Virus record (IMG/VR): IMGVR_UViG_3300038974_000417
Location: 9,312 to 73,311 of that record
DNA from: a virus
Taxonomy: Duplodnaviria > Caudoviricetes
Strand: one strand, 5' to 3'
Length of the DNA: 64,000 bases
Part shown: positions 20,302-50,000 of the stretch, in pieces
How positions within the stretch are numbered: position 1 is the stretch's first letter
How the letters are laid out: each line of letters begins with the position of its first letter
Program-made: the position numbers and the translations under genes
Notes under the pieces: model-generated
Databases searched by the model: none
What the model saw: only the letters and a program-made list of their open reading frames with translations
What the model was told of the DNA's origin: nothing

Positions 20302-21210
20302 TTATATATTATTTAATGGTTTAGCCTTTAGGGATTTACTCATTTCTATAAAGCCTTCTGATGCCGGACAACCTCCCGCAGCTTCATGACCACCACCACC
20401 CCATGATTCACATAGTTTACCCACATTTAAATCACACGATTTATTTCTCCTTATATATACCTTATTGAGTTTGTGATTATATAAAATTACAACATCAGCC
20501 TGTTCTGAGATAAAGAATATATCTGATAAATCATTTATGTATTTATCTGCTAATAGTGAACATACTTTATATGATTTATCATCAATACAAATTTCTCCAA
20601 CATATATTTCATTAATATTATTGTAATAGGTATTGAGAGAGTCTTGATATATTTTGATCATAGATTGCTGTTGAATAGAGAAACCGAAAAAGCCTCTTTT
20701 AAATATTTTACAAAAAGTGTTAAAATTATCTGTTAAGCTCCAATATACTGTATTCAGATTTTTACTTAATGGTGATTTGAGAGTGTATGAATCATAATCA
20801 TCTGTTAGGGCTATTAAGGTCTTTTGTTGAGGCGTAAGTTGGGTACTGGGAAATTTAGCAGATAGGATTTTATATATGAGTTTGCAGGCGCTGGTATACT
20901 TTTTAACAAAGGCTTTTGCGTGTTTATATTCTGTTTTTTCGTGAGTAGAATGATGATCTATTATTATAAAATTTGAATTATCTACAAGATCCTCGTTACC
21001 ACTTACATCTAAATCTAATATATAAATTCTTTCGTATTCATCGGGTTTGTGATTTAAGCACCAATTTAAATATATTTGACGAAATTCGTATGCGCTTCTA
21101 ACAGGTACTATTTCAAATGGTATATTAGGATAGAACCACGTAGTAGTTAGATAAGATACTACCCCGTCTAGATCTAAATGGGTAAATATGCATGTTTTTT
21201 TATCAGTCAT
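20302..21210 (-). CDS. DHH-family phosphoesterase (DHH + DHHA1)
   Basis: FTHLDLDG, ILDLD, IIDHH and GGGGHEAAGG motifs. Confidence 0.85.
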   Translation of the reverse strand: MTDKKTCIFTHLDLDGVVSYLTTTWFYPNIPFEIVPVRSAYEFRQIYLNWCLNHKPDEYERIYILDLDVSGNEDLVDNSNFIIIDHHSTHEKTEYKHAKAFVKKYTSACKLIYKILSAKFPSTQLTPQQKTLIALTDDYDSYTLKSPLSKNLNTVYWSLTDNFNTFCKIFKRGFFGFSIQQQSMIKIYQDSLNTYYNNINEIYVGEICIDDKSYKVCSLLADKYINDLSDIFFISEQADVVILYNHKLNKVYIRRNKSCDLNVGKLCESWGGGGHEAAGGCPASEGFIEMSKSLKAKPLNNI

Positions 21211-22537
21211 TCTGTAGTTCCTCTAATACTGTCTTTGCGGTGGATATATTATTATTTATAAACACATCTTCAGTTTCTGTTACATGTAATGTATCATAGT
21301 CTATTTTTAGACAAGTGCTACCGAAATTCGGACCGTATCTGTTTTTTTGCATGCCCATTCTCAATATTCCTAATTCTTTATCAGTGTCATCGGCCCATAA
21401 GCTCAATTGTACATCGGCTGTATGAGCTAGTCCCATGCTTTCACTAGTAGTTTCTAGACCTGGATCGGATTGATTATAACCAGACCTGTTAAGTTGGGTT
21501 GCACTCCAGACTGGTATACCACCAAAGCTATATGATAAACCCCTTAGATCTTCTGTAATAGATTTAATATCTATATATGAATTACCAGTGGTAATAACGG
21601 GTCTAAGAAGATTAATATAATCTACTATTATTAGGTCTGGCTTGAATTGTTTCTGCTGTACTAATTTGGTTAAATATGCTCTTAAAGTATTTACTGTGGC
21701 TGTTTTTGTAGGATATTCTTTTATTAATAGTTTACTACCTGGATGTATATTTTTATATTCTTTTACACTTTGAACTAAATTGTCTGAATGTTCTTTTAGC
21801 ATTTTTAGAGGTATTTTTGTAATACAGCTACTCACTCTTTTTGCATACATTTGCTCAGACATTTCGAGAGTAAATATGACTATCTTTTTATTTTGAGCGA
21901 GTACATTACTCGCCAAATTAGTAAGCATTACACTTTTACCTACGTTTGTAGCGGCGCTAATTATATATAGAGATTTACCATCGTTTACTATTCCACCATC
22001 TAACATTTTATCCAACCATTTAAAACCAGTACTGAAAGTGGAATTTACTGTATTGAGAGTCTTAATATATTCATCAATTCGATCTATATAATCTAGTCCA
22101 AAGTTATCTATTAGAGTTATACCACAGGCATTTTCAAACAATTTTAATGTTTTAGATAAATCTACTTCTTTATTTTGCCCTATTGTATTTGCTGTATTTA
22201 ATACTGCATTATATACAGCTTTTGTTTTGAGAAAATATTCAGTATTTTTTATAAGTTCATCTTCATTATATTCAGTGTCTAGCTTTTGAAACTCTAATAA
22301 TAACTGCTTAAAATGTTGTTTTTCTTGATCGTTGGCTAATCTAGATTTTATCTCTGTAAGATTTGGTACTGTTTTGTGCTCATTGTAGAATTCTTTTATC
22401 TTAAATAGTATAGTTTTAATACATCCATTATCAAAATAAGATGGATTAATATGCTCTACAATTGTAGAAAAATATGTAGATCTTTTTATAGAATTATAGG
22501 TCAATATATATTCAAAGAAATTGAAATCGAAGTTCAT
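21203..22537 (-). CDS. Replicative helicase (DnaB/T4 gp41-like)
   Basis: STGFKWLD, Walker A AATNVGKS, FTLEMSE, IIVDYINLL, VWSATQLNRSG, SESMGLAHTAD, KNRYGP. Confidence 0.92.
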   Translation of the reverse strand: MNFDFNFFEYILTYNSIKRSTYFSTIVEHINPSYFDNGCIKTILFKIKEFYNEHKTVPNLTEIKSRLANDQEKQHFKQLLLEFQKLDTEYNEDELIKNTEYFLKTKAVYNAVLNTANTIGQNKEVDLSKTLKLFENACGITLIDNFGLDYIDRIDEYIKTLNTVNSTFSTGFKWLDKMLDGGIVNDGKSLYIISAATNVGKSVMLTNLASNVLAQNKKIVIFTLEMSEQMYAKRVSSCITKIPLKMLKEHSDNLVQSVKEYKNIHPGSKLLIKEYPTKTATVNTLRAYLTKLVQQKQFKPDLIIVDYINLLRPVITTGNSYIDIKSITEDLRGLSYSFGGIPVWSATQLNRSGYNQSDPGLETTSESMGLAHTADVQLSLWADDTDKELGILRMGMQKNRYGPNFGSTCLKIDYDTLHVTETEDVFINNNISTAKTVLEELQND

Positions 22538-22538
22538 A

Positions 22539-23627
22539 TTATATCTTTAAATAATTATTAACACTTCGCACGCGTTCTTCCACTGTACCATCTATTGTGG
22601 TTACTAGATCCGGTATAAAGAGGCTAGCACACTGAATTATATTGTCAAATACACTGATTATATGTTTTCTAAACTCCGGTTCAGTACTCCGAAGTCCATC
22701 ATTTACCATTTGTAGGGTTGGTGGTAGGTAGAATATCTTAGTGTATCTATTCATGAATTCTACATTTAATAAACCTTTAGCGTATTTCATTACAGTATCG
22801 CTAATATTGCCACTCTCATATAATATTTTAGTATATGTATATCCGTCTATTATACTTCTATCTAATACACACGGTTTAGTTGCTACAAGACGTTCAAGAT
22901 GTTTATTTAGTATATAAAGCTGAGTCTCATCATTCCCTTGTTCGTTAATTTTATATCCTAACTGCTGTGCTTCTCGAGTCATACTAGTAATATACATGTA
23001 CTTGCCAAAAATATCTTTATCTTGAAGAGCTTTTACTAAAGTAGTTTTTCCTGTACAATGGGATCCTGATATTGCATATCTTAAGTTATACGGTCGAGTG
23101 AATTGTCTGGTAAAGAATAATTTCCATGATAATAAACTGGTATATCTTAGTCGATCATATATAGTACCTAAATCACAATTTTTAATAGATGTTATAACTC
23201 TATATTTAATCGGGCCATCATCTACCTCAGAAGTCACTTTATGTATTATTGATCCACTTATAGGCAATTTAAGATCATATGCTTTTTGCTGAGGATTAAA
23301 CCCCTTTAATTCTGGATATTGAACTACATCACCTGGGTGACCATTGTATATATTAAGTGTATTACATACTATTTCTGGAATTATTCGAAGCCAGCCGTGA
23401 AGAGTTACTAGAGTACAGTCTGATAGATATTTTAATAAAACGTATGGAGACTTGCTATCCTCTAGAGGAATATATATAAAGTCTGTCTGACTGGCTATTA
23501 TTTTGAGATCATCACATAAATTTTCATATGGATTGGTACTTAATATTACGCTGGGGATAATATTAAGATCATTACATATTGTTGCAAGTTCTCTTCCAGT
23601 TTGAGATAATAAGGCTCCCCATTTCAT
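22539..23627 (-). CDS. Fusion protein: PurN-like formyltransferase (N-terminal) plus nucleoside monophosphate kinase (AAA_28-like, C-terminal)
   Basis: LHGWLRII, YNGHPG and IHKVTSEVDDGPI retain the PurN Asn/His/Asp catalytic set. These are followed by ISGSHCTGKTT (P-loop), LDRSIID and IFYLPP. Confidence 0.75.
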   Translation of the reverse strand: MKWGALLSQTGRELATICNDLNIIPSVILSTNPYENLCDDLKIIASQTDFIYIPLEDSKSPYVLLKYLSDCTLVTLHGWLRIIPEIVCNTLNIYNGHPGDVVQYPELKGFNPQQKAYDLKLPISGSIIHKVTSEVDDGPIKYRVITSIKNCDLGTIYDRLRYTSLLSWKLFFTRQFTRPYNLRYAISGSHCTGKTTLVKALQDKDIFGKYMYITSMTREAQQLGYKINEQGNDETQLYILNKHLERLVATKPCVLDRSIIDGYTYTKILYESGNISDTVMKYAKGLLNVEFMNRYTKIFYLPPTLQMVNDGLRSTEPEFRKHIISVFDNIIQCASLFIPDLVTTIDGTVEERVRSVNNYLKI

Positions 23628-24454
23628 GTTCCGTATCCTTTATTTACAAATTGTCTAAACATTTTAACATTATAGTAGATTGTTTTAAGCTGTTCAACAC
23701 TAATATTTTTCTCTATTAGATCAACTAATTTTATAGAGTTCTTGGTTTTCAATCCATGTCTTGAATTATATTTAATTCCATGGATGCCGTGAACTATTGG
23801 ACTGCTGGTATCTACGGACTCAAACATGTATTTGGTAAAGCCAAAGAGTCCGGCCATTTTTAATTCTTGGGGTAATGAGCAACCTAATAGGTGATATTTT
23901 TTATTTCTTGGAAGCGATATATCCTCTTCTAGTCTTTGAATAAAGAGGTTTCTCCCGATACAAAATCTTTCCCATTTGTTTAGCTTGTTTATGGGTTTAT
24001 CTTCCGTTGACGATAAATAGTAACTATAATCAAAACTTATACCTATTTTTTCAATTGATTTTTTACTAGCTATAAATTGTATACATTCTTTTAGATCTTT
24101 ATATGTTTTACCTTGTAAGACGGCAATTTTTCTTCCTGGTAAATCATTATAATTTTTTAACCAATTTTCTATACTATTACATGTTTCAATTGTATCTTCT
24201 AATGTATCAGGAATTATATATTCATCCGGCCTAAGTTCGTCTATATATTTTGCAAATTTAACATGATTAAAACTTTTTCCTAATTCAAATATTGAATTAT
24301 CTAATAATACCCGTCTACCTATTTGTTTTTCCTGTAAATAAAAATGGTAGTATTGTGGATATAATTCAAATAAATGAACTAATGCATATGAGTAATCGTT
24401 AAAATTACGGGATTCTTCTAATAGGCTTATAGGTACTTCGTGGGATATTATCAT
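23624..24454 (-). CDS. TGT/DpdA-like TIM-barrel transglycosylase (putative 7-deazaguanine DNA base-exchange enzyme)
   Basis: VLLDNSIFELG, YIIPD, IAVLQG, YHLLG and ESVDTSSP line up with the TGT-family DSG, VQG, HLxG and catalytic-Asp segments. QueD and QueE are present in the window. Confidence 0.5.
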   Translation of the reverse strand: MIISHEVPISLLEESRNFNDYSYALVHLFELYPQYYHFYLQEKQIGRRVLLDNSIFELGKSFNHVKFAKYIDELRPDEYIIPDTLEDTIETCNSIENWLKNYNDLPGRKIAVLQGKTYKDLKECIQFIASKKSIEKIGISFDYSYYLSSTEDKPINKLNKWERFCIGRNLFIQRLEEDISLPRNKKYHLLGCSLPQELKMAGLFGFTKYMFESVDTSSPIVHGIHGIKYNSRHGLKTKNSIKLVDLIEKNISVEQLKTIYYNVKMFRQFVNKGYGT

Positions 24455-24457
24455 ATA

Positions 24458-25534
24458 TTACTCTTCGGTTAAGGGTGATAGATCTATTTTATTATAACAT
24501 AATTCTTTTTGCAACATGGGCTCTAGTTTTTCTATTATAGAGTTCCATACTTCTTCGTTGCTTTTCCATGTCTTAAAATATCCTAACTTTTTCTCACCGA
24601 GAGAATATGTAGATCCGTTCTGCTGTACTATATCATATCCAATTGCCATATCTAGCAAGCCTGCATATTTATATAATCCAGATTTAAAGTTTAAATATAA
24701 TTCTGTTTCTAAGAAGGGTGGTATAAATCTATTTTTAACTGTAAGTGCTCGAAGGGTTACTCCACTAACTTTATTGGCCATAGGTATTTTTATATCATCA
24801 TCATTTTTCTCATCATGCTTTTCATTACGAATAGCTAATTGTACTAAAAGACTGGCCAGATATAAGGGGCCTTTACCTCCCGATTGACTTTTAACTAGAC
24901 TGGGAAACATAGCCATTGGATCGTCATAAATATGATTTGCAAATATTACAGATACACCAGCTTTAGCAGCCTTGTATGTAATTGTACGCATCATACTTTT
25001 TAATCCCTTAGCTCTTTGTCCTAGATCGCTTGCAGTTTTATCTTTAGCGGCATCAGTCATTTCTTTTTGGCTGGCAAGGTTGCCTAGGCTGTCGATTGCT
25101 ACAATATATTTTCCATACGTTTTTTCACCACCAGCGATAACGTTATCTAGAAATTTAGATATTTGATTTCTACACTCTTCAATAGTTTCAACTGGGAGTA
25201 TTTTAATACGCTCAGGATTGACACCTACGTTTTTGATTGTATTTTTATCTGTTGCAGCCTCTGTATCCCATATTAGACCCCAGTGATCTGAGCTGAGAGA
25301 TTGAAAGTTTCCAATTATTTTATTGATAATAAGACTTTTTCCGCTTTGTGCTGGACCCACGAAGCCAGTGATTCTACCCTTAGGTATTCCCTTATATAAA
25401 CTACCGGAGCATATTGCATTTAATGCATAGCTTCCGGTATCAATCCATTCATTTACAGTGCTTAGATTGTGATCACTAAGCGTAGCAAAATCTGGATTAA
25501 GTTTATCGAGTCCTTCAAATACTCCGGTAGTCAT
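24458..25534 (-). CDS. uvsX: RecA/UvsX-like recombinase
   Basis: IDTGSYALN, GIPKGRITGFVGPAQSGKS, WDTEAA, IDSLGNL, ANHIY and GGKGPLYLAS. Confidence 0.9.
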   Translation of the reverse strand: MTTGVFEGLDKLNPDFATLSDHNLSTVNEWIDTGSYALNAICSGSLYKGIPKGRITGFVGPAQSGKSLIINKIIGNFQSLSSDHWGLIWDTEAATDKNTIKNVGVNPERIKILPVETIEECRNQISKFLDNVIAGGEKTYGKYIVAIDSLGNLASQKEMTDAAKDKTASDLGQRAKGLKSMMRTITYKAAKAGVSVIFANHIYDDPMAMFPSLVKSQSGGKGPLYLASLLVQLAIRNEKHDEKNDDDIKIPMANKVSGVTLRALTVKNRFIPPFLETELYLNFKSGLYKYAGLLDMAIGYDIVQQNGSTYSLGEKKLGYFKTWKSNEEVWNSIIEKLEPMLQKELCYNKIDLSPLTEE

Positions 25535-25934: not shown

Positions 25935-26654
25935 TTATTCTCCTTTGTTTGTTATGTTTAATATTAATGGGTTATATTTTATATCATATTGTTCGTCTAA
26001 TAAACTAACGTTATACATATATACTTCTCGTCCCTCACGGGAGTCATGACACCATTTCATTCGATCATGATTACCCGAATGGATGTGTCCAAAAACTACA
26101 TATTTTGGATTTTTCATTTTGATTTCATCCATGAGCCATTTATTTCCTAAATTTTCCGTTTCGTTATATTCTAAAATAGTATCTCCGTATCCATAAGGAG
26201 GGCAGTGTGATATTAATACATCTATATCGTTATCTATTTTAGAATAATATTCCTTTGCATATTCAGGACCTTTATTATTAGGAATATTAAATGCCCAATT
26301 ACGAAGATGGGTGACCCATGGAGTACCATGAAATTTCACTCCGTCTAAAACTATATTACTATCTCTTAGATAAAATATATTATTAGGCAATTTTGATTTA
26401 AATTCATCCTCTGCTTGATCTTTAAATATATCCTGAAAATAGAAATCATGATTTCCGGCAATCAATATTTTATATTTAGCTGGAATAAGATTAAGATATG
26501 GAATGAAAGAATCCCAAAACCATTGTTTTTGAAGCCGTCCGCTACCCAATTCAAAATCTGGGAGTACATCTCCACCCATAACAAGAACATCACATTCTGG
26601 AATCTTATCGGCAAAATTTTTACCGTGAGTATCACTGACTGCTACTATTTTCAT
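25935..26654 (-). CDS. Calcineurin-like metallophosphoesterase
   Basis: SDTHG, GGD, AGNHD, LISHCPPYG and FGHIH. Confidence 0.9.
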   Translation of the reverse strand: MKIVAVSDTHGKNFADKIPECDVLVMGGDVLPDFELGSGRLQKQWFWDSFIPYLNLIPAKYKILIAGNHDFYFQDIFKDQAEDEFKSKLPNNIFYLRDSNIVLDGVKFHGTPWVTHLRNWAFNIPNNKGPEYAKEYYSKIDNDIDVLISHCPPYGYGDTILEYNETENLGNKWLMDEIKMKNPKYVVFGHIHSGNHDRMKWCHDSREGREVYMYNVSLLDEQYDIKYNPLILNITNKGE

Positions 26655-30630: not shown

Positions 30631-32427
30631 ATGAAGAAGATAATTTTTAAGAACATAAGAGTGTGTAATTTTTTATCTATTGGATCTAGAGAGATTAAAT
30701 TAGATTTTACTCCTGGTATAAATTTAATAACTGGTATAAATTTAGATAAAGAAGATACTGGAAACGGGAGTGGTAAATCAAGCTTAGTCAATTCTATATA
30801 TTTTGCTTTATATGGCAGAACTTTGAAGGATTTAAAGGTAGATAAAATTCCTAATAGTTTTACTAGAGGACCATGTCGGGTGACTCTGGATTTTGATGTA
30901 TGTCATAATAATAATTTTACTTCTTATTCGGTTATTAGATCTCTCCGCCCTACTAAATTAAAAATATTAAGGGATGGGGAGGATATTACTAAGAGTACTA
31001 TTATTCAGACTACCGAGTTATTGCAGGATATTATTAGTTGCTCTAGTACGGTTTTTGAAAATAGTATAGTAATGGATGCTAATAGTGCTACCAATTTTAT
31101 GTCCCAGAAGAAGGTAGAAAAGCGTAAATTCTTAGAGGGTATTTTAAATCTTACAATATTTGGTGAGATGTTGAGTATTGCTCGAGCTGATTATAATGAT
31201 GCACGATATCAGTTTGATATAGAAAACGCAAAGCTTCAGTCTGAGGTTTCAGCTCTTGATAATTATAGGAAACAATTAGACAGACAGAAGAGCGTAAGGG
31301 ACGAGAGACGTGAGGAATTACAGGGTAGAATTAATGAGATATCTAAGGAGATGGAGTCTTTAAGTAGTAACATTAAAAGCATTCCATCTGATGAAGAGTT
31401 GGGGGTTATAAAATCTAAATGTAGTAAATTGGATGATGCTCTGTCTACCAATCGATTAAATTATAAGAAGTTAATCAAGTTGGAGGCTGAGGTGAATCAG
31501 TCCAAGAAGCATTTGATGGAGAGGCTTGATAAGTTAATTAATTTACCTAATGAGTGTGTGGAGTGTGGTCGTTCATTTTCTGACGAGGATCGAAGGGTGG
31601 TGGGGGATGAGTGCGCGAAGATGAGGGTTGATATATCGGATATCACTAATAAAATTTCGGACGTTAGGAATCAAATTGGTGTAATTGAGGATCAATATAA
31701 AAAAATAGAACAGGGTAAGTTGTTATTATCTCAAAAGCAGAATAATATTAAGGCCTCTGAGAAGCATAATGAAACCGTTAATTGGCGAATTATGCAATTA
31801 TCTAAAACTCTTGATACTTTGCATAAGGATTTGATTGCAGTTGATAGGGACGATTCTGGGTTGACGGATACTATATCTAGTATATCTAAAAAGGTAGATG
31901 GTATACGGGAGACGGTCAACCGGTTGAATGTTAAGATGGATATATTAAAATCTTCTAAATTTATTTTATCAGAAGAGGGTATTCGTAGCTTTATAGTTAA
32001 GAGAATTTTACGAATACTTAATAGTAAGTTGAATATGTATTTAGCCAAGTTAGATGCTAATACTAGATGTGAATTTAATGAATACTTTGAGGAGTCTCTT
32101 TGGGATATATCTGGTAATGAGAGAAGTTATTATAATTTTAGCAATGGGGAACAGCGCCGAATAGACTTGGCTATTCTTTTTGCATTTCAAGATATTCGTC
32201 GTTTACAGGCTGATGTGGATATGAATATTAGTATATATGACGAACTGTTGGATAGTAGTTTGGATAGGAGGGGGTCAGAGCTGGTGATTGCTTTGTTAAA
32301 AGAGCGGGCTGATAAAAATAAGGAGTGTGTATATATAGTTAGTCATCGTAAGGAAGCTCAATCTAGTTATACTAATAAAGTTGTTACGTTACAGAAGAAG
32401 AATGGTATAACTACTCTGGTAGACTAG
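30631..32427 (+). CDS. SbcC/Rad50-like recombination ATPase (T4 gp46-like)
   Basis: NFLSIG, Walker A GNGSGKSS, central CxxC hook (CVECG), signature FSNGEQRRIDLA, IYDELLDSSLD, IVSH. Confidence 0.92.
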   Translation: MKKIIFKNIRVCNFLSIGSREIKLDFTPGINLITGINLDKEDTGNGSGKSSLVNSIYFALYGRTLKDLKVDKIPNSFTRGPCRVTLDFDVCHNNNFTSYSVIRSLRPTKLKILRDGEDITKSTIIQTTELLQDIISCSSTVFENSIVMDANSATNFMSQKKVEKRKFLEGILNLTIFGEMLSIARADYNDARYQFDIENAKLQSEVSALDNYRKQLDRQKSVRDERREELQGRINEISKEMESLSSNIKSIPSDEELGVIKSKCSKLDDALSTNRLNYKKLIKLEAEVNQSKKHLMERLDKLINLPNECVECGRSFSDEDRRVVGDECAKMRVDISDITNKISDVRNQIGVIEDQYKKIEQGKLLLSQKQNNIKASEKHNETVNWRIMQLSKTLDTLHKDLIAVDRDDSGLTDTISSISKKVDGIRETVNRLNVKMDILKSSKFILSEEGIRSFIVKRILRILNSKLNMYLAKLDANTRCEFNEYFEESLWDISGNERSYYNFSNGEQRRIDLAILFAFQDIRRLQADVDMNISIYDELLDSSLDRRGSELVIALLKERADKNKECVYIVSHRKEAQSSYTNKVVTLQKKNGITTLVD

Positions 32428-32962: not shown

Positions 32963-33250
32963 ATGAAGAGGAAGTATAGGAGATTGCTTAATCGATCTGG
33001 ATTAGAGAAATGTGAGATATGTGGTAGAGAGGGAATTTTAGTACAGCATCATATCCGTGGTAGGAATATCCCTAATGCCAATCATCCGAGCAATTTAGCT
33101 AACATATGTCCCAACTGTCATGCTGATATACATAATGGTATTATTATATTAGAAGACTGGGTGATGACCACCGGTGGATATGAATTATTATATCATCATT
33201 ACAAAGAACCTAGTTTAACTGGTAATGATGCTAAGCCTTGGTTAATTTAA
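32963..33250 (+). CDS. Small HNH endonuclease
   Basis: CEICG, QHHIRG, NHPSNLANICPNCHADIH; TAAATA 5 nt upstream of the ATG. Confidence 0.8.
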   Translation: MKRKYRRLLNRSGLEKCEICGREGILVQHHIRGRNIPNANHPSNLANICPNCHADIHNGIIILEDWVMTTGGYELLYHHYKEPSLTGNDAKPWLI

Positions 33251-34228
33251 GTTGGTTATATCTATTGAATGTCTTATAGCTTGCCACATATCAAGGTATT
33301 TATATGTAGCTAGTCTCCCGGTGAATATAACATTTTTTTCATCTTTAGCAAGATTAGCATATTTTTGATATATTTCTTTACCTGAGCCAAACGGTATTGG
33401 ATAGAAGGGTATATTATTGTTATCATGTTCAATGGGATATTCTTCAGTAATAATAGTGCTGCCGGAGTGATTATAGGTGAAATAGCTATGATCGTATACT
33501 CTAGTATATGGAATATTTTTTATATTTTGATTTATTATAAATGTATTCATTTTTTCTTTATTTTGTTTATGTTTAAAATTTAGTGATCTATAGGGTAATC
33601 TACCGTACTGAAGGTTAAAGTATTCATCTATTTTACCGGTATATACTAATAAGTCACATTTTACATTTTTCCACTCGTTATTATCAACGCATAGGTTGTA
33701 TTTAATACCGTCTAACATATTAGTCATCATATTAGTATAGCCGTATTTAGGTATACATTGATACTTTTGACCTTCAAACCAGGTGGGATCTTCATGTTTT
33801 GCTACTTTAGGTATTCTGTTAATAATTTCTGTGGGTATTTGATTAAATTTTACTCCCCATTGTTTTTCTGAATATCCCACAAATATATATTTTAAAATTT
33901 CATCTTCTGATAATTCCCTACCAATTTCCTTTATAGTTTTTTTACTATATGGAAGCGACAGTAGTCCCAGTTTAGTATTACCCTTCGGCTTAAGTTGAAA
34001 TGGGATCCACTCAGTATATCTACTAAGTAGTAAATATACCTCTTCATCATCAGTGTGAAATATATGTGGGCCATATAGATGAACTAAAGTATTCTTTATT
34101 TTTTCATCATAACAATTACCACCTATATGTGATCTATTTTCAAAAATTTCTATATTATGTCCTTGTTCTTTAAGTTTTATAGCACATACAATACCCGATA
34201 AGCCGCAGCCAATAATATTAATTTTCAT
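33242..34228 (-). CDS. glf: UDP-galactopyranose mutase
   Basis: IIGCGLSG, HIGGNCYD, HLYGPHIFHT, KQWG, YQCIPKYGYT, LPYRSL, YTRV, PFYP, GRLATYKYLDM. Confidence 0.9.
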   Translation of the reverse strand: MKINIIGCGLSGIVCAIKLKEQGHNIEIFENRSHIGGNCYDEKIKNTLVHLYGPHIFHTDDEEVYLLLSRYTEWIPFQLKPKGNTKLGLLSLPYSKKTIKEIGRELSEDEILKYIFVGYSEKQWGVKFNQIPTEIINRIPKVAKHEDPTWFEGQKYQCIPKYGYTNMMTNMLDGIKYNLCVDNNEWKNVKCDLLVYTGKIDEYFNLQYGRLPYRSLNFKHKQNKEKMNTFIINQNIKNIPYTRVYDHSYFTYNHSGSTIITEEYPIEHDNNNIPFYPIPFGSGKEIYQKYANLAKDEKNVIFTGRLATYKYLDMWQAIRHSIDITNLN

Positions 34229-35043
34229 ATCGTTTGTATTAACCGATTTATTTCAACCAAAGCACTGTCGCGTGATAAGCATATGTTGTCTAATTTTCTT
34301 TGGTTATGAATGATATATTTTTGTAGTTCTTTATCTTTTTCGATTCTTTCATAGTTAATTAATAAATCAGAAAGATCGCGCTTTACTGGTATGAAGTTTT
34401 CCCATGGTTTAAGGTACCTATAAAACCATTCATACCACGGACGCGATACTATAAATACAATGCGTTTTGATGACAGTAGATATTTAAGTCTACCTGAATA
34501 ACCGACACCTTCTACGTCTATTAAATATTTCCATTTTTTTATCTGTTCTTCGTAATTCAAGTATTGTCCACCTATAATACAATCTGTGTTAATTCTGTCC
34601 CAGATGTTAGATCTTATATCAAGTGTATCTGTATTAGATTGTCCTAATTTATATAATGTCTTTCGAGTTGTAATACTATCTGTACCTGCCCCAATCCACC
34701 CTATCTTATTAGTCTCGGGAGTTACGTCGATTTTATTAATTAATGAGCGAACGTCTTCATAGTCCTTATATCCCACATGGCGATAGCAGTCATAGTTAAA
34801 GTCAGGGAATGTTTCGTTAAAATTTTGAGTAGTAGTTGAATATTTGAAGGTTTTAGCGCTACCTATATCATATGGTGAGTCATCTACATTAACGATAAAT
34901 TCAATTTGTTTTCTAATTTTAAATTTGTCAATGGTGCTTCTTATGAGTTTAATAGTACTTAAGCATCTGTCTTCATATCCATTTTCAATAAAGTAGCGCT
35001 GGTTGCTATTATTTAGCATGCATTTTACATACTGTATATTCAT
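34225..35043 (-). CDS. Glycosyltransferase family 90 (CAP10/KDELC-like)
   Basis: KWKYLIDVEGVGYSGRLKYLLSSKRIVF and EWFYRYLKPWENFIPVKRDLSDL. Confidence 0.8.
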   Translation of the reverse strand: MNIQYVKCMLNNSNQRYFIENGYEDRCLSTIKLIRSTIDKFKIRKQIEFIVNVDDSPYDIGSAKTFKYSTTTQNFNETFPDFNYDCYRHVGYKDYEDVRSLINKIDVTPETNKIGWIGAGTDSITTRKTLYKLGQSNTDTLDIRSNIWDRINTDCIIGGQYLNYEEQIKKWKYLIDVEGVGYSGRLKYLLSSKRIVFIVSRPWYEWFYRYLKPWENFIPVKRDLSDLLINYERIEKDKELQKYIIHNQRKLDNICLSRDSALVEINRLIQTI

Positions 35044-35058
35044 ATTATTGTACTTTCA

Positions 35059-36012
35059 TTATGTATTAATTGATTCAATCAATTGTATATATCTATCAAC
35101 CACCACGTTCCAGTCAAATTTACTAAGTACGTATTCCCTGATTTTGTCGCGCATATTAATAGAAATTCGTTTATTCTCGTCTATTACATTTCTGATATAT
35201 TGTTTGTCTGATATTTTATTTTCAGGTATTACTGCAATAAATGGTTGATCTACGTCTAAGTTTTGGCATGCGTATTCCGATAGCACTAATCCTAGACCTG
35301 CACACATGGCTTCCATGCAAACTAGCGGATGTCCCTCACCGTCGCTTAGTAGTACTAAATTTGCATAATCCGTCAGCTTAGTATAAATCTCTTCCTTAAA
35401 TAGCGTACCTTTGTAGTATTGTAAAAATCTATCCATCGTAGAGTCTTTTCGGACGCCATAGAAATCTATGTCCTGTGATATATCTTCAAGTATATATTGT
35501 CTTTTGCGAAACTCAACTGATGCTAAATATATTGATTTATTGGAATTACAAGTGCTGGAATATTTAATTTTTTCCTTATTGACTCCATTATATGATAGGA
35601 AGAGTCTTTTTTCATCAAAACCTGCGTCTCTATATACTTTCATTGCTTCTGGAGATAGACAAAATATATTACCTGAATACGAAAGAAATTTTTGAAATAT
35701 ATATGGATACGGTCTGAATACCGGGTGATATTTTGGTCGATCTAGATATCCATAGTGAGATGTGACAGCCTGTTTTTTGCAGTTTATATATTTCATTACA
35801 TCGATATGTTGATCGTGATGCAGGTGTACGAAATCCGGTGAAAACTCGTTTACATTTTTTACTATAGTACTAAAATCTTTTGTATTAGTAATCAATACCT
35901 TGTGACCCTTGTTTTTTAGAGTGTTAGCTACGTCCCATATTAATATTTCCGTTGCTCCCCAGCCTCTGGGTGGTATTTCTATTTCCCCTGGTCCTATTAG
36001 TGCTATTTTCAT
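35059..36012 (-). CDS. Glycosyltransferase (GT4-like)
   Basis: MKIALIGPG..IPPRGWGATE, DFVHLH, EGHPLVCMEAMCAGL, FDWNVV. Confidence 0.85.
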   Translation of the reverse strand: MKIALIGPGEIEIPPRGWGATEILIWDVANTLKNKGHKVLITNTKDFSTIVKNVNEFSPDFVHLHHDQHIDVMKYINCKKQAVTSHYGYLDRPKYHPVFRPYPYIFQKFLSYSGNIFCLSPEAMKVYRDAGFDEKRLFLSYNGVNKEKIKYSSTCNSNKSIYLASVEFRKRQYILEDISQDIDFYGVRKDSTMDRFLQYYKGTLFKEEIYTKLTDYANLVLLSDGEGHPLVCMEAMCAGLGLVLSEYACQNLDVDQPFIAVIPENKISDKQYIRNVIDENKRISINMRDKIREYVLSKFDWNVVVDRYIQLIESINT

Positions 36013-36776
36013 TGTTTTAATAAATCCCTATCAAATGGTATGTTATAATAATCCTTGACATAGTGCATTAACGACTCTCCGTTAAATTCGTGATCTGGGT
36101 CTGGCGCTCTTCTGGTTTTTTCGCTATGATTAAGCGATGGACCGTAGTTGAGACCTATCATTAAAAAAGTTGATGTTAAAAAGCAATCGGTATAACAAAA
36201 TCTATTTTCTATATTTTTCATAATATATTCATAGTCATAATTTCTGAAGAAATTATCTATTGCCTTGACTAGAGACGATTTCTTTAAAATAGTACCCCCA
36301 CACCCACCGTATCCCACATCACTTACGGATATATTATTTTTTGCTTTTATATATTTTGCCATAGAGTATAATCCTCCTCGCATACCGTGAGGCCCGGCAA
36401 TATCAGTACTCCATCTCTTATATATAGGTCCTCTTAATATTAAATCGTCCTCAGCGAAAAGTATAATCTCTGTAGATGTTAATCTGCAGGTAGTCTTTAA
36501 TCTTGCACAAAATGATACATAGTTATCATAGTTCAATAATAGAGGAGACGTATCTCCGGGTCTCATACTAAATGTGGATTTAATATGATGTATATATGTT
36601 ATATTTTTAAAATATTCAACTAAATCATTATAGTCATCACCATTGTCAGAATGGAGAAATATCTGTACCTTTGGATAGTATAATCTTATTGATTCAATAC
36701 ATTTAAAGGTGGCGTATTTTTGCTTATAACAATTTAAAAATACACAGAACTCGTTATCTTGTAATATTTCTGTCAT
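36009..36776 (-). CDS. Glycosyltransferase (GT-A fold)
   Basis: HSDNGDD, LFAEDD (DxD-like), YGGCGGTI; located in the GT cluster. Confidence 0.6.
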   Translation of the reverse strand: MTEILQDNEFCVFLNCYKQKYATFKCIESIRLYYPKVQIFLHSDNGDDYNDLVEYFKNITYIHHIKSTFSMRPGDTSPLLLNYDNYVSFCARLKTTCRLTSTEIILFAEDDLILRGPIYKRWSTDIAGPHGMRGGLYSMAKYIKAKNNISVSDVGYGGCGGTILKKSSLVKAIDNFFRNYDYEYIMKNIENRFCYTDCFLTSTFLMIGLNYGPSLNHSEKTRRAPDPDHEFNGESLMHYVKDYYNIPFDRDLLKQ

Positions 36777-36792
36777 AAATTATCCTCTATAT

Positions 36793-37599
36793 TCATGTAG
36801 ATAATATATCATTTAGTTTACTGTATCTATTATATTGATGTATGATGGAGGGTAGTAAATTGTTGTAGTATATTTTATTGTCTCGTATAGTAATGGCTTC
36901 AAATATGTTATTCAGTTCAACGTCTTGCGCCAGGTGTGCACATGTGTTGTTTGGCATTAAATGTAGTGTGACGTTTCGCCAGTCGAAGAAATAGTTATTA
37001 TAGCAGTATGTAGCTACTGCTTGATCTGATTGTTTTGCGCCACTTTTTATTATTATGCTTTGCAATTCATTTACAAATAGTTTTAGATATAGTAGTATAT
37101 CGCTATGTTTAATTATTATGACACCGTTATTTATTATTGGCTTATCATAATCTATAGAGAGTTGCTTGTATCCGTAGCATTGAGCATACCAGAGTGCATT
37201 TGTTATACACTGTCCGATTTTGAGTTTTTCTGCAAAAAGGTTTATGTCGTTTAATTCGGTCTTAAATGGATCGCTCTGTACATATACGTCATTAATATCA
37301 CTGAGTAATATATAATCGTATTGATCTTTTAGATGATACTTAATATACAGATATATAATAAAATATTTTACATTATATATTGATAGACTAGTATTAATTT
37401 TGTATTTTATATAATAGCTTGAATAGTCAACTAGCTTTACGTTGGGATAGAATTTTTTTATATTATCTATTATGTCGGTTCCTACGTCTTTGTATAAAAC
37501 GTGTATATCGGTATGAATTTTTGCTATAGAACTTATAAAGACTTTTATGTTAGTAAAGTCTTTATATCCACTCATCAGAGCTATTGTTAAATTTTTCAT
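36793..37599 (-). CDS. Glycosyltransferase-like protein (GT-A fold)
   Basis: ILLSDINDVYVQSDPF, INNGVII, DQAV, IIHQYNR. Confidence 0.65.
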   Translation of the reverse strand: MKNLTIALMSGYKDFTNIKVFISSIAKIHTDIHVLYKDVGTDIIDNIKKFYPNVKLVDYSSYYIKYKINTSLSIYNVKYFIIYLYIKYHLKDQYDYILLSDINDVYVQSDPFKTELNDINLFAEKLKIGQCITNALWYAQCYGYKQLSIDYDKPIINNGVIIIKHSDILLYLKLFVNELQSIIIKSGAKQSDQAVATYCYNNYFFDWRNVTLHLMPNNTCAHLAQDVELNNIFEAITIRDNKIYYNNLLPSIIHQYNRYSKLNDILST

Positions 37600-38408
37600 A
37601 GTACCTTTCTGGCGTATGTAGCTTTTAGTCTCTCTAACGATTCAATTACTTTGGGCTCATCAGTCGGTGGTATTTGAGTTGGAACACATCCGTATTTACG
37701 CGTGAATATTCCAATGGCATTTTGCATATTCTGTTGCCATTTTACTACGTCTTTACGAATTTCACTACCTTCAAAATTTTGTTTTATATCAGATATGTCT
37801 ATATGACTGTTGTGTGCATCTGCGAACCACCAGAATGGTGGATGTAGACCAGCCTTTATAATGTCGTACGTGTGAGCTACGTGCTCGAACGCATTTATAA
37901 ATCTTTCATCCATGTAGCCTACGTTCTTAATTACACCTTTATGATAATAGCTAAATGCACCTAGAATGTTGTGATAAAAATCAACTGTAATGCTATCTTC
38001 ATATTCAATTTGGTTTTTAATGTTAATTGCACCAGTTTGTGGATCTCTATTATAAGATCCGTGACCACCATAGTTCAAATGCCATATACCCGAAACCTCT
38101 GCTGTTTTAATATATTTTATGAAGATATCTGGATTATTAATTTTTATATCATCCTCTATTAAAAATAGATGATCACATCCATCTTGAATGAGGTATCTTA
38201 AAGCCTCGTTTTTACTTACCCCTACGCTCTTGTTTTTAGTATGTTGAATTATTTCTGTTATATTAGATGTATAAACATCTGGGGCATAGGGTGCGCCATC
38301 ATTTACAACTACCAGGGTATCAACTGAGGGGATAGACTTGATACATTCCTTGAAGAATGAATCACGATTGCATGTTATAACACCTACTCCTATTTTATTT
38401 TTCATCAT
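37596..38408 (-). CDS. Glycosyltransferase family 2
   Basis: IGVGVITCNR, VVNDG, KNEAL, FLIEDD, GYMDERF. Confidence 0.85.
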   Translation of the reverse strand: MMKNKIGVGVITCNRDSFFKECIKSIPSVDTLVVVNDGAPYAPDVYTSNITEIIQHTKNKSVGVSKNEALRYLIQDGCDHLFLIEDDIKINNPDIFIKYIKTAEVSGIWHLNYGGHGSYNRDPQTGAINIKNQIEYEDSITVDFYHNILGAFSYYHKGVIKNVGYMDERFINAFEHVAHTYDIIKAGLHPPFWWFADAHNSHIDISDIKQNFEGSEIRKDVVKWQQNMQNAIGIFTRKYGCVPTQIPPTDEPKVIESLERLKATYARKVL

Positions 38409-39442
38409 GATACCTTTTTGTATGTTTCTATTATATATGTCTCTACCTCTGATTTATAGGGTATGTCGATGTTTTCAATGTACTCATGGATACTTTTTAC
38501 TGTATCTACTCCGGTTATATTTAAATCATCACCTGGAGATATATCAGCTGAATCGGTTATATAGTCAATTTTTATATCTAATGGATTTAGTATTTTCAGT
38601 TTTTCAGTTATGGCAATTAGAGCGTCAGGATTTACTTTTATATCTACAATTATTTTTATCCAATTATTGGGAATGATTTGTTTAATATCGTTAGTTAATC
38701 CGTTCTTTTTAATGTCTGATACATATATTTTTTTATGTTTTGGAGATATAGTATTCTCGTAAAATTTATATGAGTTGTCTGTAACGTCTATAATATAGTA
38801 TCCCTTATCGGAGCTGTAGTCTCCCCAGTACAATTCAAAAGCACAGCCGGTGTATAATATTGTTTTATTATTAAACGTCCGTTCGTCCTTCCCATGGAAG
38901 TGACCTGAGATGGTTAGATCAGCTTTATCGAGTATGTTAATGGGGCTTAATCCGGATTCACATACTCTTTCTTTGGTCATATTGAACCCTTGAATTTCAA
39001 AATGACCGAATATTATATCACTCTTTGGTAGATTGGATGGATCTGACGCCCACGGGCAGAATGATATGGTTTTACCGAAGAATTTATCCGAGTATATGGA
39101 GTCTACAACTGTAATATTGTCCCAGTTTTTAAGCATTTCTAAGCTGTGTACATCACTACGCTCCTTGTAATAACTGTCGTGATTCCCTACAACAATTATA
39201 ATGTTAAATTGCTTCAGTGATTCAAACATCCTGGATACTACTGATAGAGTGGCTACGTTAACCTCATTTCGTTCATGAAGTATATCTCCTGGAATGATGA
39301 TATCCGCTATATCATGTTTAATGCACTCTTGCTTAAACCACTCACTCCACGATATTAATATATCGTGCCACTGAGTACTGTTTTGATGGACGCCCGCGTG
39401 TATGTCGCTGACTACTGCAACTTTAGGTTTTAGTATTTTCAT
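38405..39442 (-). CDS. SbcD/Mre11-like recombination nuclease (T4 gp47-like)
   Basis: SDIHAG, PGDILH, VGNHDSY, FGHFEI, SGHFH, YTG. Confidence 0.9.
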   Translation of the reverse strand: MKILKPKVAVVSDIHAGVHQNSTQWHDILISWSEWFKQECIKHDIADIIIPGDILHERNEVNVATLSVVSRMFESLKQFNIIIVVGNHDSYYKERSDVHSLEMLKNWDNITVVDSIYSDKFFGKTISFCPWASDPSNLPKSDIIFGHFEIQGFNMTKERVCESGLSPINILDKADLTISGHFHGKDERTFNNKTILYTGCAFELYWGDYSSDKGYYIIDVTDNSYKFYENTISPKHKKIYVSDIKKNGLTNDIKQIIPNNWIKIIVDIKVNPDALIAITEKLKILNPLDIKIDYITDSADISPGDDLNITGVDTVKSIHEYIENIDIPYKSEVETYIIETYKKVS

Positions 39443-45748: not shown

Positions 45749-46930
45749 ATGAGTTTAAGTAAGACTTATGAACAATTACAGGGCGCTGGTCGCACGTTTA
45801 TTACTTTAGCAGAAGTGTATGACACTATGTCCCTTAAGCCTCTATCAGAAGAAGTAGATGTATTGATGCAACACAAGCCAGCCGGTAAAGTTGAGGAGTT
45901 TGAAATTTCAAACTCTCTTGCATCTAAATTTAAAAGAGAGATTCAACTCGAAAAACATTCTCTATCAGAAATAATAGAAAAATGGGTAAAATCAAGTGGG
46001 TGGACATCTCCTCATGCACGGAAACATCTTCCCGCAGCAATAGAATCTATAATATTAAATAGTGGCCTGGATCTATCAGACGATACTACTATTACCAATA
46101 TAGTAGAGGGTATAACTGCACTAATAACAAATAAAGAAAACATCGGTACCCTTTCACAGGCATTAGTAGATAAATCACCGAATCTAACTAGCTTTTTACT
46201 TAATACAATAAAGAAGTATGAGCCCGTCTCGGTACTAAATAGGCCAGATATTATAGATATAATGATTAAAGAATTACACTTTACAGAGGGTAATGTGGCA
46301 GTGGGGCCGGGTGAAGTATTTATCACTTTATTTAGTGAGGCAATTAATCCCTCAAAGGGAGATTTACAGATTAAGAATCCATTAACTGGTGATGAATTTA
46401 AAATTGAATTAAAAAGTGACGATGGTAGAGTTAGTAAAGAGGCCGCAATAGGAATTACTGCAGGTATGAAGGCCTTGGAGTCTGCTGTTGGAGGATTTAG
46501 TAAAATGGCCAGAGGTAGCTTTACCGAGCATTTCAATAAAATGCTGGAAGGACGCAATAAGATGACCAATATAAACAAGGCTATAGATATTATATTATCA
46601 TTTACAAATAATACCGATCGAGTGCCTGCAGATATTATAGAAAATTATATGCGTTCTTCTACTATATACGGAAGTGAATTAGCAGCCTCAGTAATAGGGG
46701 CTATACAAATCGCAGATTATCAATCAATTGAAGATTTTAAATATATAGTATATTTTAAGAGCAGTTCACCATATAGTCAGGTAGTACTAGGTCCGTTTAC
46801 TGAAAATTATAATAACAACTTACAGGTAATATTAGACGATATTCATAAGCTAAAAATTATTCCTAATACCGGAGGTACAGGTAAGTATGGAGAGGGTGGG
46901 AGAGGAGGATTCCCCATGAGGGTCAAGTAA
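45749..46930 (+). CDS. Hypothetical protein with possible PD-(D/E)XK nuclease motif
   Basis: VGPGE...KGDLQI...KIELKS arrangement; ATG 45749 preferred. Confidence 0.4.
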   Translation: MSLSKTYEQLQGAGRTFITLAEVYDTMSLKPLSEEVDVLMQHKPAGKVEEFEISNSLASKFKREIQLEKHSLSEIIEKWVKSSGWTSPHARKHLPAAIESIILNSGLDLSDDTTITNIVEGITALITNKENIGTLSQALVDKSPNLTSFLLNTIKKYEPVSVLNRPDIIDIMIKELHFTEGNVAVGPGEVFITLFSEAINPSKGDLQIKNPLTGDEFKIELKSDDGRVSKEAAIGITAGMKALESAVGGFSKMARGSFTEHFNKMLEGRNKMTNINKAIDIILSFTNNTDRVPADIIENYMRSSTIYGSELAASVIGAIQIADYQSIEDFKYIVYFKSSSPYSQVVLGPFTENYNNNLQVILDDIHKLKIIPNTGGTGKYGEGGRGGFPMRVK

Positions 46931-47799
46931 TGAAGACTTTTGAACAATATATCAAAGAAAATTTAGACGGTTTAGCGGTCGGTAAATCAATTAAAGATTT
47001 TTATAATAAATACTATCCTACTAAAAAGATCAGCTTCGATAGTTTTAAGGACGATTTCAAGTGTAAGGTAGAGGAGGGTATATCTGTTGAATACGAACAT
47101 ACTCGTGAGAAAGAAATTGCCAGGAAAATAGCACTAGATCATCTATGGGAAGACCTAAATTACTATTACAAGCTCAAGAAGTTTGTTGAACAAGCTCAAA
47201 AAACTGCAGTTATATCGTACGGTAGATTTAATCCACCGACAATAGCGCATGAAAAGCTTATTAGGACTCTATCAGAAACAGCTAAAGCAAATAACGCAGA
47301 TGCATACCTAGTGCCCTCGCACAGCGACTTCTACACAGCCAAGGCCAAGGTCGACAGAGAAAAAAACCCACTGACCTTAAGAGAGAAGATTAAGATATTA
47401 TCTAATATAGTACCTAATAATGTTATTATATCAAGCGATGGTCGTACTCTAATAAACATATTGAAGATTCTATCTGAACAAGGATATACAAATATAATTC
47501 AATTAGCAGGTTCGGATAGAATAGAGGAATTTAGAAATTTAATTAATAAATACAACAATGTTCCGGATAAAAGAGGTATAATAAATTTTGGATTTAAAGG
47601 ATATGAATTAATTTCATCTGGTGATAGAGACCCCGACTCAGAGGGTACAATAGGAATGAGTGCCTCTAAGCTGAGAAAATTAGCTCGCGAAGGTAACTAT
47701 GAAGAATTTGTAAAAGGTATGCCCCAATCACTTCAATCAAACGAATCCTTACTTAAAGAAATCTATAATATAATTAGAGAAAGATCTGCTAATAAATAA
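46930..47799 (+). CDS. Fusion: DUF5661-like domain plus cytidylyltransferase-like (HxGH) nucleotidyltransferase
   Basis: EGISVEYEHT...KIALDHLWEDLNYY, then SYGRFNPPTIAHEKL, AGSDR and MSASKLR. Confidence 0.7.
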   Translation: MKTFEQYIKENLDGLAVGKSIKDFYNKYYPTKKISFDSFKDDFKCKVEEGISVEYEHTREKEIARKIALDHLWEDLNYYYKLKKFVEQAQKTAVISYGRFNPPTIAHEKLIRTLSETAKANNADAYLVPSHSDFYTAKAKVDREKNPLTLREKIKILSNIVPNNVIISSDGRTLINILKILSEQGYTNIIQLAGSDRIEEFRNLINKYNNVPDKRGIINFGFKGYELISSGDRDPDSEGTIGMSASKLRKLAREGNYEEFVKGMPQSLQSNESLLKEIYNIIRERSANK

Positions 47800-47853: not shown

Positions 47854-48471
47854 ATGATTATAAGAAAATTATTTAAATTTGAGGGTGCTCATATTGTTCG
47901 CGATTGTTCGTCTGATAGATGTAAGAAATCCATCCACGGTCACAGCTACATTGTAGAAGTTAAGCTTAAGGCCAGTCACTTAGATAACGCCGGAATGGTT
48001 TTGGATTTCGGTCTGATGAAGGGTACCATTAGAGATGTGATTGATTCATTCGACCATGCATATTCGCTATGGACTAAGGAGAATAATGATTATAAAGAAT
48101 TCATTAAAGCTCATAGCGAGCGGTGGATTGAAATGCCATGTTCGCCGACGGCCGAGCTATACTCGGTAATGTTTTATGCTATTATATATAATATAATTAA
48201 TAAAACACAATTTAATAATGGTGAGAAAAACATAATATTAGACTCTGTAAGAGTTCACGAGACGGACACAGGCTGGGCTGAAGCTGATTATGATGATTAT
48301 ATTAATATATGGCTTCGTGGGGGGTATAGTATAAAACATATATTCTTTAGTCAGCAAATAAAGATGGAGTGGAAAGATACCAAAATGTGGGATAAACTTT
48401 TAGATGAAGATCCTAAATCCCCAGAAATGCCATTTATTAATCCTAAAATAACTCTATTATATAATAGTTGA
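47854..48471 (+). CDS. queD: 6-carboxy-5,6,7,8-tetrahydropterin synthase
   Basis: FKFEGAH, CKKSIHGHSY, GMVLDFG, FDH, PTAE, VRVHET. Confidence 0.88.
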   Translation: MIIRKLFKFEGAHIVRDCSSDRCKKSIHGHSYIVEVKLKASHLDNAGMVLDFGLMKGTIRDVIDSFDHAYSLWTKENNDYKEFIKAHSERWIEMPCSPTAELYSVMFYAIIYNIINKTQFNNGEKNIILDSVRVHETDTGWAEADYDDYINIWLRGGYSIKHIFFSQQIKMEWKDTKMWDKLLDEDPKSPEMPFINPKITLLYNS

Positions 48472-49997: not shown

Positions 49998-50000
49998 TTA

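Follow-up and report, generated by a model that had tools for sequence, protein, structure and literature searches.

The question raised by positions 22539-24454 of the window (the whole stretch of DNA analysed here, 64 kb out of the 73.3-kb IMG/VR viral contig IMGVR_UViG_3300038974_000417) is why a phage would join a formyltransferase and a P-loop kinase in one polypeptide, directly downstream of a gene with the TIM-barrel fold of tRNA-guanine transglycosylases (TGT), and whether this arrangement bears on the stage, before or after replication, at which guanine in the phage DNA is replaced. The source of the contig, the completeness of which is ~35% by CheckV, is an uncultured T4-like phage of anaerobic digesters; near-identical DNA recurs in metagenomes of many studies, from anaerobic digesters, wastewater, bioreactors and landfill, and the listed sequencing runs that contain it include no RNA run. 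The two proteins encoded at these positions, P0001 and P0002, very probably constitute the core of an fdPreQ1 system, a DpdA3-type system for 7-deazaguanine replacement in DNA, which by homology to Flavobacterium phage immuto_2-6A (hereafter immuto) would yield DNA containing 7-(formylamino)methyl-7-deazaguanine. The DpdA3/DpdN/fdPreQ1 system has already been published (Cui et al., 2023; PMC10516641), and the likely DNA chemistry of this phage is accordingly not new; what is new is the natural fusion of the formyltransferase DpdN with the kinase, an architectural variant of that system. The genes of the locus and its flanks are the following:

23624-24454, minus strand: dpdA3 (protein P0002, 276 aa), a minimal TGT-fold TIM barrel, predicted guanine/7-deazaguanine transglycosylase
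22539-23627, minus strand: DpdN-kinase fusion gene (protein P0001, 362 aa), a single open reading frame (ORF)
23097-23627, minus strand: DpdN domain (residues 1-177), predicted PurN-like folate-dependent N-formyltransferase
22542-23096, minus strand: kinase domain (residues 178-362) with the P-loop GSHCTGKTT, a DR motif and a DDGxRS lid
23624-23627, minus strand: stop/start overlap of dpdA3 and the fusion gene, ATGA, 4 nt
24458-25534, minus strand: uvsX, the upstream flank, with a 3-nt gap to dpdA3 (RecA at 1.6e-17, phrog_97 at 1e-59)
21203-22537, minus strand: dnaB-like helicase, the downstream flank, with a 1-nt gap to the fusion gene (5e-26)

The TIM-barrel protein P0002 is 44% identical over 269 aa (E 5e-72) to gp65 ('DpdA') of immuto and 45% identical over 274 aa (E 4e-63) to gp056 of Campylobacter phage CP220, both of which were named DpdA3 by Cui et al. 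(2023; PMC10516641); these two were the founding members compared, phiST CGPG_00065 being a third. At E up to 1, no match to Pfam or NCBIfam, the TGT family (PF01702) included, was obtained, and the only PHROG matched was the unannotated phrog_19058. The AlphaFold (AF2) model of P0002, built from 34 homologues, is a TIM barrel with a predicted local distance difference test score (pLDDT) of 94.6, for which the top 50 Foldseek matches in the PDB are all tRNA-guanine transglycosylases (E about 3e-7). In an exhaustive structural comparison, the best scores were those of ArcTGT (Z 17.4) and bacterial DpdA (7ui4; Z 16.8, 236 residues aligned), followed by TGT (15.1), QTRT2 (14.8) and Cap10 (14.3); among generic TIM barrels, PdxJ (Z 15.2) falls within the TGT range, and the others score 11-13. 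The grouping of this protein with TGT and DpdA, which an earlier sequence-only reading of the locus had put forward, is thus borne out by the identity to the founding DpdA3 proteins and by the ArcTGT/DpdA fold.

Three aspartates, D52, D83 and D215, together with F56, are invariant in the DpdA3 family (34 sequences). F56 follows D52 at a distance of four residues, just as Phe99 follows Asp95 in bacterial DpdA, in which the active-site residues are Asp95/Phe99, Asp130 and Asp256 (PMC10164549); by motif and strand position, D52, D83 and D215 are predicted to be the corresponding set of active-site aspartates (general acid/base, base recognition and nucleophile). Beyond these similarities, the two proteins share only 11% sequence identity, and DpdA3 is ~140 residues shorter. 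The DpdA3 profile retrieved no TGT from the PDB sequences, and its direct alignment with E. coli Tgt (hhalign) was weak (probability 3.7%, E 0.011), with the QG, HLLG and D-x-x-x-P motifs aligned, so the relationship between DpdA3 and TGT rests on fold and motifs and not on a sequence-level match. The Zn-binding Cys/His cluster of TGT is missing from the DpdA3 family, in which a single Cys column is >90% conserved, and charge is uninformative with regard to a DNA substrate (median isoelectric point 5.3 in the DpdA3 family, 5.97 for E. coli Tgt and 8.6 for P0002). Whereas bacterial DpdA is a DNA preQ0 insertase, the DNA substrate of DpdA3 is a predicted one. The family comprises at least 1781 protein clusters (90% identity) and at least 554 IMG/VR loci, and includes P0134 (586 aa), where the DpdA3 domain is preceded by 320 N-terminal residues without a family match.

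Residues 1-177 of P0001 are 41% identical over 171 aa (E 1e-37) to immuto gp67 (DpdN, YP_010114479.1) and match, at full length and with 153 bits, the hidden Markov model (HMM) of DpdA3-adjacent formyltransferases, which identifies as DpdN the half initially described as a PurN-like formyltransferase. By comparison, the Pfam formyltransferase model alone gives 20.8 bits, below its curated cut-off of 26.1, and the PurN equivalog TIGR00639 gives 24.2 bits, far under the cut-off of 150.1. The DpdN half shares with PurN the fold (Z 20.0 and root-mean-square deviation 2.1 A over 170 residues against 5cjj) and the catalytic Asn/His/Asp: N95 and H97 of the NGHP motif (residues 95-98) and D136 of the VDDGP motif (residues 135-139) align with N106, H108 and D144 of PurN (hhalign E 3e-6), and the triad is invariant in 35 DpdN-family sequences. 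Unlike in PurN, the loop SGNGSN (E. coli), which we take to be the binder of the 5'-phosphate of glycinamide ribonucleotide (GAR), is remodelled to SQTG(S/K)E throughout the DpdN family, with an invariant Glu in the position of Asn13. By these features, the domain is a DpdN orthologue, not a PurN, and is predicted to employ Asn, His and Asp to move the formyl group from 10-formyl-tetrahydrofolate onto the 7-aminomethyl group of preQ1; in the literature, formyl transfer by DpdN likewise is a prediction (PMC10516641). Long forms of DpdN (302-309 aa) are encoded at L059:8919-9827, L065:2200-3129 and L077:2331-3242 and carry a C-terminal extension of ~125 residues without a Pfam match; the kinases beside them have a Cys-rich tail of ~45 residues.

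The kinase half of P0001 is recognised at residues 183-335 by Pfam AAA_28 (7.6e-14) and by phrog_2107 'thymidylate kinase' (1e-27). With the HMM built for the DpdA3-linked kinases (K-family), the domain reaches 174 bits (positions 3-178 of 182); its identity is 32% to immuto gp68 and 29% (E 1e-21) to CP220 gp057, and on this homology it is an orthologue of the DpdA3-linked kinase. The residues invariant in the K-family are G-x4-GK-T, TR, INE, TQ, DR and DDGxRS. Structural matches of the domain are the ribosylnicotinamide kinase domain of NadR (NadR-RNK, Z 11.4), deoxyadenosine kinase (11.0), deoxyguanosine kinase (10.5) and thymidylate kinase (TMPK, 10.2), and the K-family profile finds TMPK, deoxynucleoside kinases (dNK) and NadR among the PDB sequences; no polynucleotide kinase or ParB-like protein is among the structural or profile matches. 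The models thus point to a small-molecule nucleoside or nucleoside monophosphate (NMP) kinase of the NadR-RNK/dNK/TMPK type. Because the nucleoside kinases (NadR-RNK, dNK) tie with the NMP kinases (TMPK) in fold, the initial label of NMP kinase is not established.

Both the formyltransferase motifs and the P-loop kinase were located, as initially described, within the single 362-aa ORF. The fusion is genuine and not an assembly artefact, because it is present without indels in four independent assemblies and has ten fused homologues: contigs from four runs of four studies span positions 22400-24600 at >99% identity, with substitutions only, and the homologues, all metagenomic (361-375 aa, 45-74% identity), show this two-domain architecture as well, with a linker that varies, and share the synteny PolB-x-UvsX-DpdA3-fusion-DnaB-DHH-..-gp32. 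The AF2 model of P0001 has a pLDDT of 84 and a predicted template modelling score (pTM) of 0.85. The maximum-likelihood tree places all ten fused kinases together in a single clade (100/99) within the DpdA3-linked family. The junction of dpdA3 and the fusion gene reads ggaacATGAaatgg, where ATGA, the 4-nt overlap noted in the sequence-only reading, is common to the upstream stop and the downstream start, indicating translational coupling; with the flanks matched as UvsX and DnaB-like, as that reading had placed them, uvsX, dpdA3, the fusion gene and the dnaB-like helicase gene make up a single, tightly packed replication operon.

An exhaustive search of 1.84 billion representatives yielded only four clusters (defined at 50% identity) of full-length DpdN=kinase fusions, namely P0009, P0013, P0135 and P0136, which occupy three separate positions in a quick FastTree tree with support not assessed. 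These proteins are part of a broader group of fusions in which a kinase of the nucleoside/nucleotide type is joined to pathway genes; the other fusions found around DpdA3, DpdN and the kinase are:

P0221: DpdA3=DpdN
P0152: kinase=QueF
P0224 and P0254: kinase=GNAT
P0230: kinase=dUTPase
P0145: TMPK-like kinase=DpdN, in the opposite order
P0052: dUTPase=DpdA3

The two kinase=GNAT fusions are located at separate places in the kinase tree and hint at phages that acetylate, instead of formylating, the preQ1 amine, with a possible undescribed DNA base. The dUTPase-fold domain of P0230 and P0052 is encountered also at L086:4720-5995, where dpdA3 is overlapped at its start by a dUTPase gene, and could be either an ordinary dUTPase or a dGTP-directed pyrophosphatase.

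How the kinase relates to DpdA3 in general was assessed in 80 IMG/VR loci retrieved by DpdA3 alignment, with the families confirmed by Pfam. The operon across these loci is dpdA3-(dpdN)-kinase-queF, with mostly overlapping stops and starts. The kinase is encoded in 73 of the 80, and the remaining seven are cut off at most a few hundred bases from dpdA3 or dpdN; thus the kinase accompanies DpdA3 as an obligate operon partner (73/73 untruncated loci), in Campylobacter, Flavobacterium and numerous uncultured lineages. The gene for QueF is found in 64/80 loci and dpdN in 30/80, always between DpdA3 and the kinase where present, and the presence of dpdN switches several times across the maximum-likelihood tree of the kinases. 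Taken jointly with the identity of the system, the fusion in this phage in all likelihood derives from the adjoining dpdN and kinase genes of the canonical dpdA3-dpdN-kinase-queF operon. In a distant fused lineage, a compact cluster that is complete, QueD-QueE-PolB-QueC-dUTPase-DpdA3-DpdN=K-QueF-FolE2, lies on the contig of P0135. The dpdA3-kinase operons of one small clade (L048, L049, L081) resemble this window in having no adjacent queF, indicating that queF adjacency is common but not obligatory, and an unfused relative (L083:2456-2806) has an extra 116-aa ORF between dpdN and the kinase gene.

Among the characterised phages, immuto is the closest counterpart. Its genes follow the order dpdA3 (65), a small ORF (66), dpdN (67), kinase (68) and queF (69), so that orthologous DpdA3 (44%), DpdN (41%) and kinase (32%) are shared and their order is kept, with QueD and QueE encoded elsewhere in the genome in both phages. 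Unlike in immuto, where DpdN and the kinase are products of separate neighbouring genes, in the present phage they make up a single polypeptide, dpdA3 and dpdN are not separated by a small ORF, and no queF follows the kinase, the operon being lodged between uvsX and dnaB instead. In immuto DNA, all G is replaced by fdPreQ1, and dA, dC and dT are canonical (PMC10516641). In CP220 (Firehammervirus), as here, the DpdA3 orthologue (gp056) is directly followed by the kinase orthologue (gp057); this phage differs in that it has a P-loop+HD protein upstream of dpdA3 and no DpdN, and makes 7-amido-7-deazaguanine (ADG; dADG genome). The genes for further 7-deazaguanine enzymes, and a second kinase, are on the other strand of the window:

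47854-48471, plus strand: queD (6-pyruvoyl-tetrahydropterin synthase family; PF01242 at 8.6e-24), an early step of 7-deazaguanine synthesis
48783-49520, plus strand: queE (radical-SAM 7-carboxy-7-deazaguanine synthase; 28% identity to immuto QueE, 1e-17; QueE HMM from DpdA3 loci, 1.6e-48)
50001-50648, plus strand: second AAA_28 kinase paralogue, 215 aa (K-family HMM, 87 bits; AAA_28, 4e-5)

For group 1, the criterion of Cui et al. was that DpdN is encoded with DpdA and the FolE-to-QueF pathway (PMC10516641). Here the assignment meets a counter-argument: searches of the 73-kb fragment, including tblastn with the QueC, QueF, FolE2 and dUTPase of L086 as queries, found no QueC, QueF, FolE or FolE2 and none of the dGTP-depleting candidates MazG, HD and dUTPase. 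As about two-thirds of the genome is missing, this non-detection is not evidence of absence. The DNA base of this phage, unlike that of immuto, is a predicted one. The claim that the phage makes a formylated deazaguanine therefore holds insofar as homology and the relatives carry it, with QueF, QueC and FolE not located on the fragment. Directly upstream of queD, at 46930-47799 of the window, lies the gene for a protein that has a DUF5661 at its N-terminus and resembles cytidylyltransferases (phrog_3041, 6e-42), and just downstream of queD and queE, at 49524-50648, a dCMP deaminase gene (PF00383, 3e-19) immediately precedes that of the second, divergent kinase. The latter could catalyse a second phosphorylation step or be an unrelated deoxynucleoside monophosphate (dNMP) kinase; in the tree, it is a long branch outside the DpdA3-linked clade.

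If the fused kinase indeed acts on small molecules, at least one step of the pathway would take place on a free deazaguanine-bearing (deoxy)nucleoside or nucleotide. In the simplest scheme, DpdA3 would swap the base of a dG nucleos(t)ide, DpdN would formylate the aminomethyl group, the fused kinase would phosphorylate the product towards the deoxynucleoside triphosphate (dNTP), and the phage B-family polymerase would incorporate it. The substrates and the order of these steps, like the final DNA base, we infer from the homology, folds, motifs, operon conservation and fusions described above. The sequence-only reading had raised such a nucleotide-level step as a possibility in view of the fusion; the idea appears reasonable, given that the kinase follows DpdA3 in every untruncated locus, and is favoured because of this obligate pairing, the small-molecule class of the kinase and the fusions to DpdN, QueF, GNAT and dUTPase, so that we consider a nucleos(t)ide-level step plausible, although unproven, with a likelihood that approaches even. 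More specifically, and more tentatively, DpdA3 may be not a DNA transglycosylase but the first TGT-fold enzyme for which base exchange takes place on free deoxyguanosine nucleos(t)ides, with DpdN and the kinase making a formyl-preQ1 deoxynucleotide for the phage polymerase; this reading we consider somewhat less likely than not. If it is true, the complete G replacement in DpdA3 phages would be pre-replicative, as is that by hydroxymethylcytosine in T4 or by 2-aminoadenine in S-2L, contrary to the published model. The hydroxymethylcytosine route of T4 consists of gp56 dCTPase, gp42 dCMP hydroxymethylase and gp1 dNMP kinase. The logic proposed for DpdA3 phages would be the same, a nucleotide-level base-modifying enzyme and a dedicated kinase that together lead to the complete replacement of one base, whereas the protein families are unrelated and, in DpdA3 systems, the nucleotide-level step is one that we only infer.

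Several published observations bear on this choice. G is replaced to 100% in DpdA3 phages, compared to 0.1-30% for the other DpdA subfamilies; the activity of DpdA3 could not be demonstrated in E. coli; the ADG nucleoside was observed within the cytoplasm of CP220-infected cells; and the kinase goes unmentioned, with 0 occurrences of the word 'kinase' in the paper (PMC10516641). These four points sit uneasily with the post-replicative model of the same paper. A modified-dGTP route had been proposed earlier for Campylobacter phages, as noted by Hutinet et al. (2019; PMC6884629).

A number of considerations weigh against base exchange on free nucleos(t)ides. Overlapping neighbouring genes fuse easily, hence what fusions prove is that the partners share a pathway, which need not extend to the substrate, and DpdN, without the GAR-phosphate loop of PurN, shows nothing to suggest that it binds a 5'-phosphate as PurN does. 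To our knowledge, all characterised members of the TGT/DpdA superfamily act on a polymer (tRNA, DNA or, in the case of Cap10, protein), and none on a mononucleotide. All 7-deazaguanine modifications have been held to be post-replicative since every phage with such a modification has DpdA (Cui et al., 2023; PMC10516641), and bacterial DpdA needs an ATPase partner (PMC10164549), of which the DpdA3-linked kinase could accordingly be a functional analogue.

These arguments lead to the main alternative, under which DpdA3 would swap guanine for preQ1 or formyl-preQ1 in finished DNA, DpdN would formylate the free base or the base in DNA, and the kinase would be an accessory, either an ATP-using partner of DpdA3 comparable to DpdB or a salvage enzyme. 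We regard this alternative as possible but somewhat doubtful. It is the model proposed by Cui et al. (PMC10516641), it agrees with the fact that the nearest structural relatives of DpdA3 are polymer-acting transglycosylases, the DNA preQ0 insertase DpdA among them, an NTP-binding partner has its precedent in the ATPase of DpdA (PMC10164549), and the DpdA3=DpdN fusion P0221 fits formylation straight after insertion. What it accommodates less readily is the nature of the partner, which by its fold and conserved substrate-site residues is a predicted small-molecule nucleoside/NMP kinase, in contrast to the ParB-like ATPase DpdB of the bacterial system, and which is naturally fused to QueF, a free-base enzyme, and to dUTPase, a dNTP enzyme. 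DpdA3, moreover, is devoid of the Zn cluster and of the extra domains of TGT, the failure of its tests in E. coli (PMC10516641) counts on the same side, and complete G replacement has no post-replicative precedent in the other DpdA subfamilies.

Another conceivable explanation is that the kinase is a general phage dNMP kinase, an analogue of T4 gp1, brought next to dpdA3 by the clustering of nucleotide-metabolism genes and fused to DpdN by accident. The locus does lie within a replication module (PolB, UvsX, DnaB, gp32), the overlapping stop and start would make a fusion easy, and the DpdA3-linked kinase family is labelled thymidylate kinase in public records; nevertheless, the Pfam Thymidylate_kin and NCBIfam Tmk models are not listed for P0001 at E up to 1, the adjacency to DpdA3 is strict in all 73 informative loci across the lineages named above, DpdN insertions invariably occur between DpdA3 and the kinase, with QueF directly after, and the fusions recur with four different pathway enzymes, all of which makes a general kinase improbable. 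A kinase that activates formate as formyl phosphate was rejected, given that the kinase is found in operons without an acyltransferase and is also fused to GNATs of the acetyl-CoA type.

That the TIM barrel and the P-loop kinase are a thymidine-hypermodification pair, of the kind of aGPT-Pplase and 5-hydroxymethyluracil DNA kinase reportedly described by Lee and colleagues in 2018 and by Iyer and colleagues in 2013, is a superficial parallel between TIM-barrel enzymes that neighbour P-loop kinases in phage DNA-modification loci, and it is rejected, with practically no probability left to it, because liquid chromatography-mass spectrometry of immuto DNA shows only G replaced (PMC10516641), QueF belongs to the operon and QueC, QueD, QueE and FolE to the cluster, and P0002, without any Pfam match, has TGT and DpdA as its best folds.

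Elsewhere in the window, a Rad50-like SMC ATPase and two calcineurin-like (Mre11-like) phosphoesterases are encoded at 25935-26654, 30631-32427 and 38405-39442. Since PolB, gp32, primase and a DHH phosphoesterase are present too, the set points to a module for replication and recombination of the T4-like type. A UDP-galactopyranose mutase gene (PF03275, 1e-51) beside those of GT90- and GT4-type glycosyltransferases (33242-36012), followed by unannotated ORFs on the same strand (36009-38408), could supply a sugar modification of the DNA, the virion or the host surface.

The natural fusion of DpdN and the kinase adds evidence on the open question of whether G is replaced before or after replication in DpdA3 phages, and joint assays of formylation and phosphorylation could conveniently be run with the fused protein as the only reagent. 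Should the kinase mark a step at the nucleotide level, the way in which these phages replace all of their G would have to be reconsidered, and a TGT-fold enzyme would gain a new class of substrates; such enzymes could help to make 7-substituted 7-deaza-dNTPs. The DpdA3 family to which these considerations apply is very common in environmental phages.

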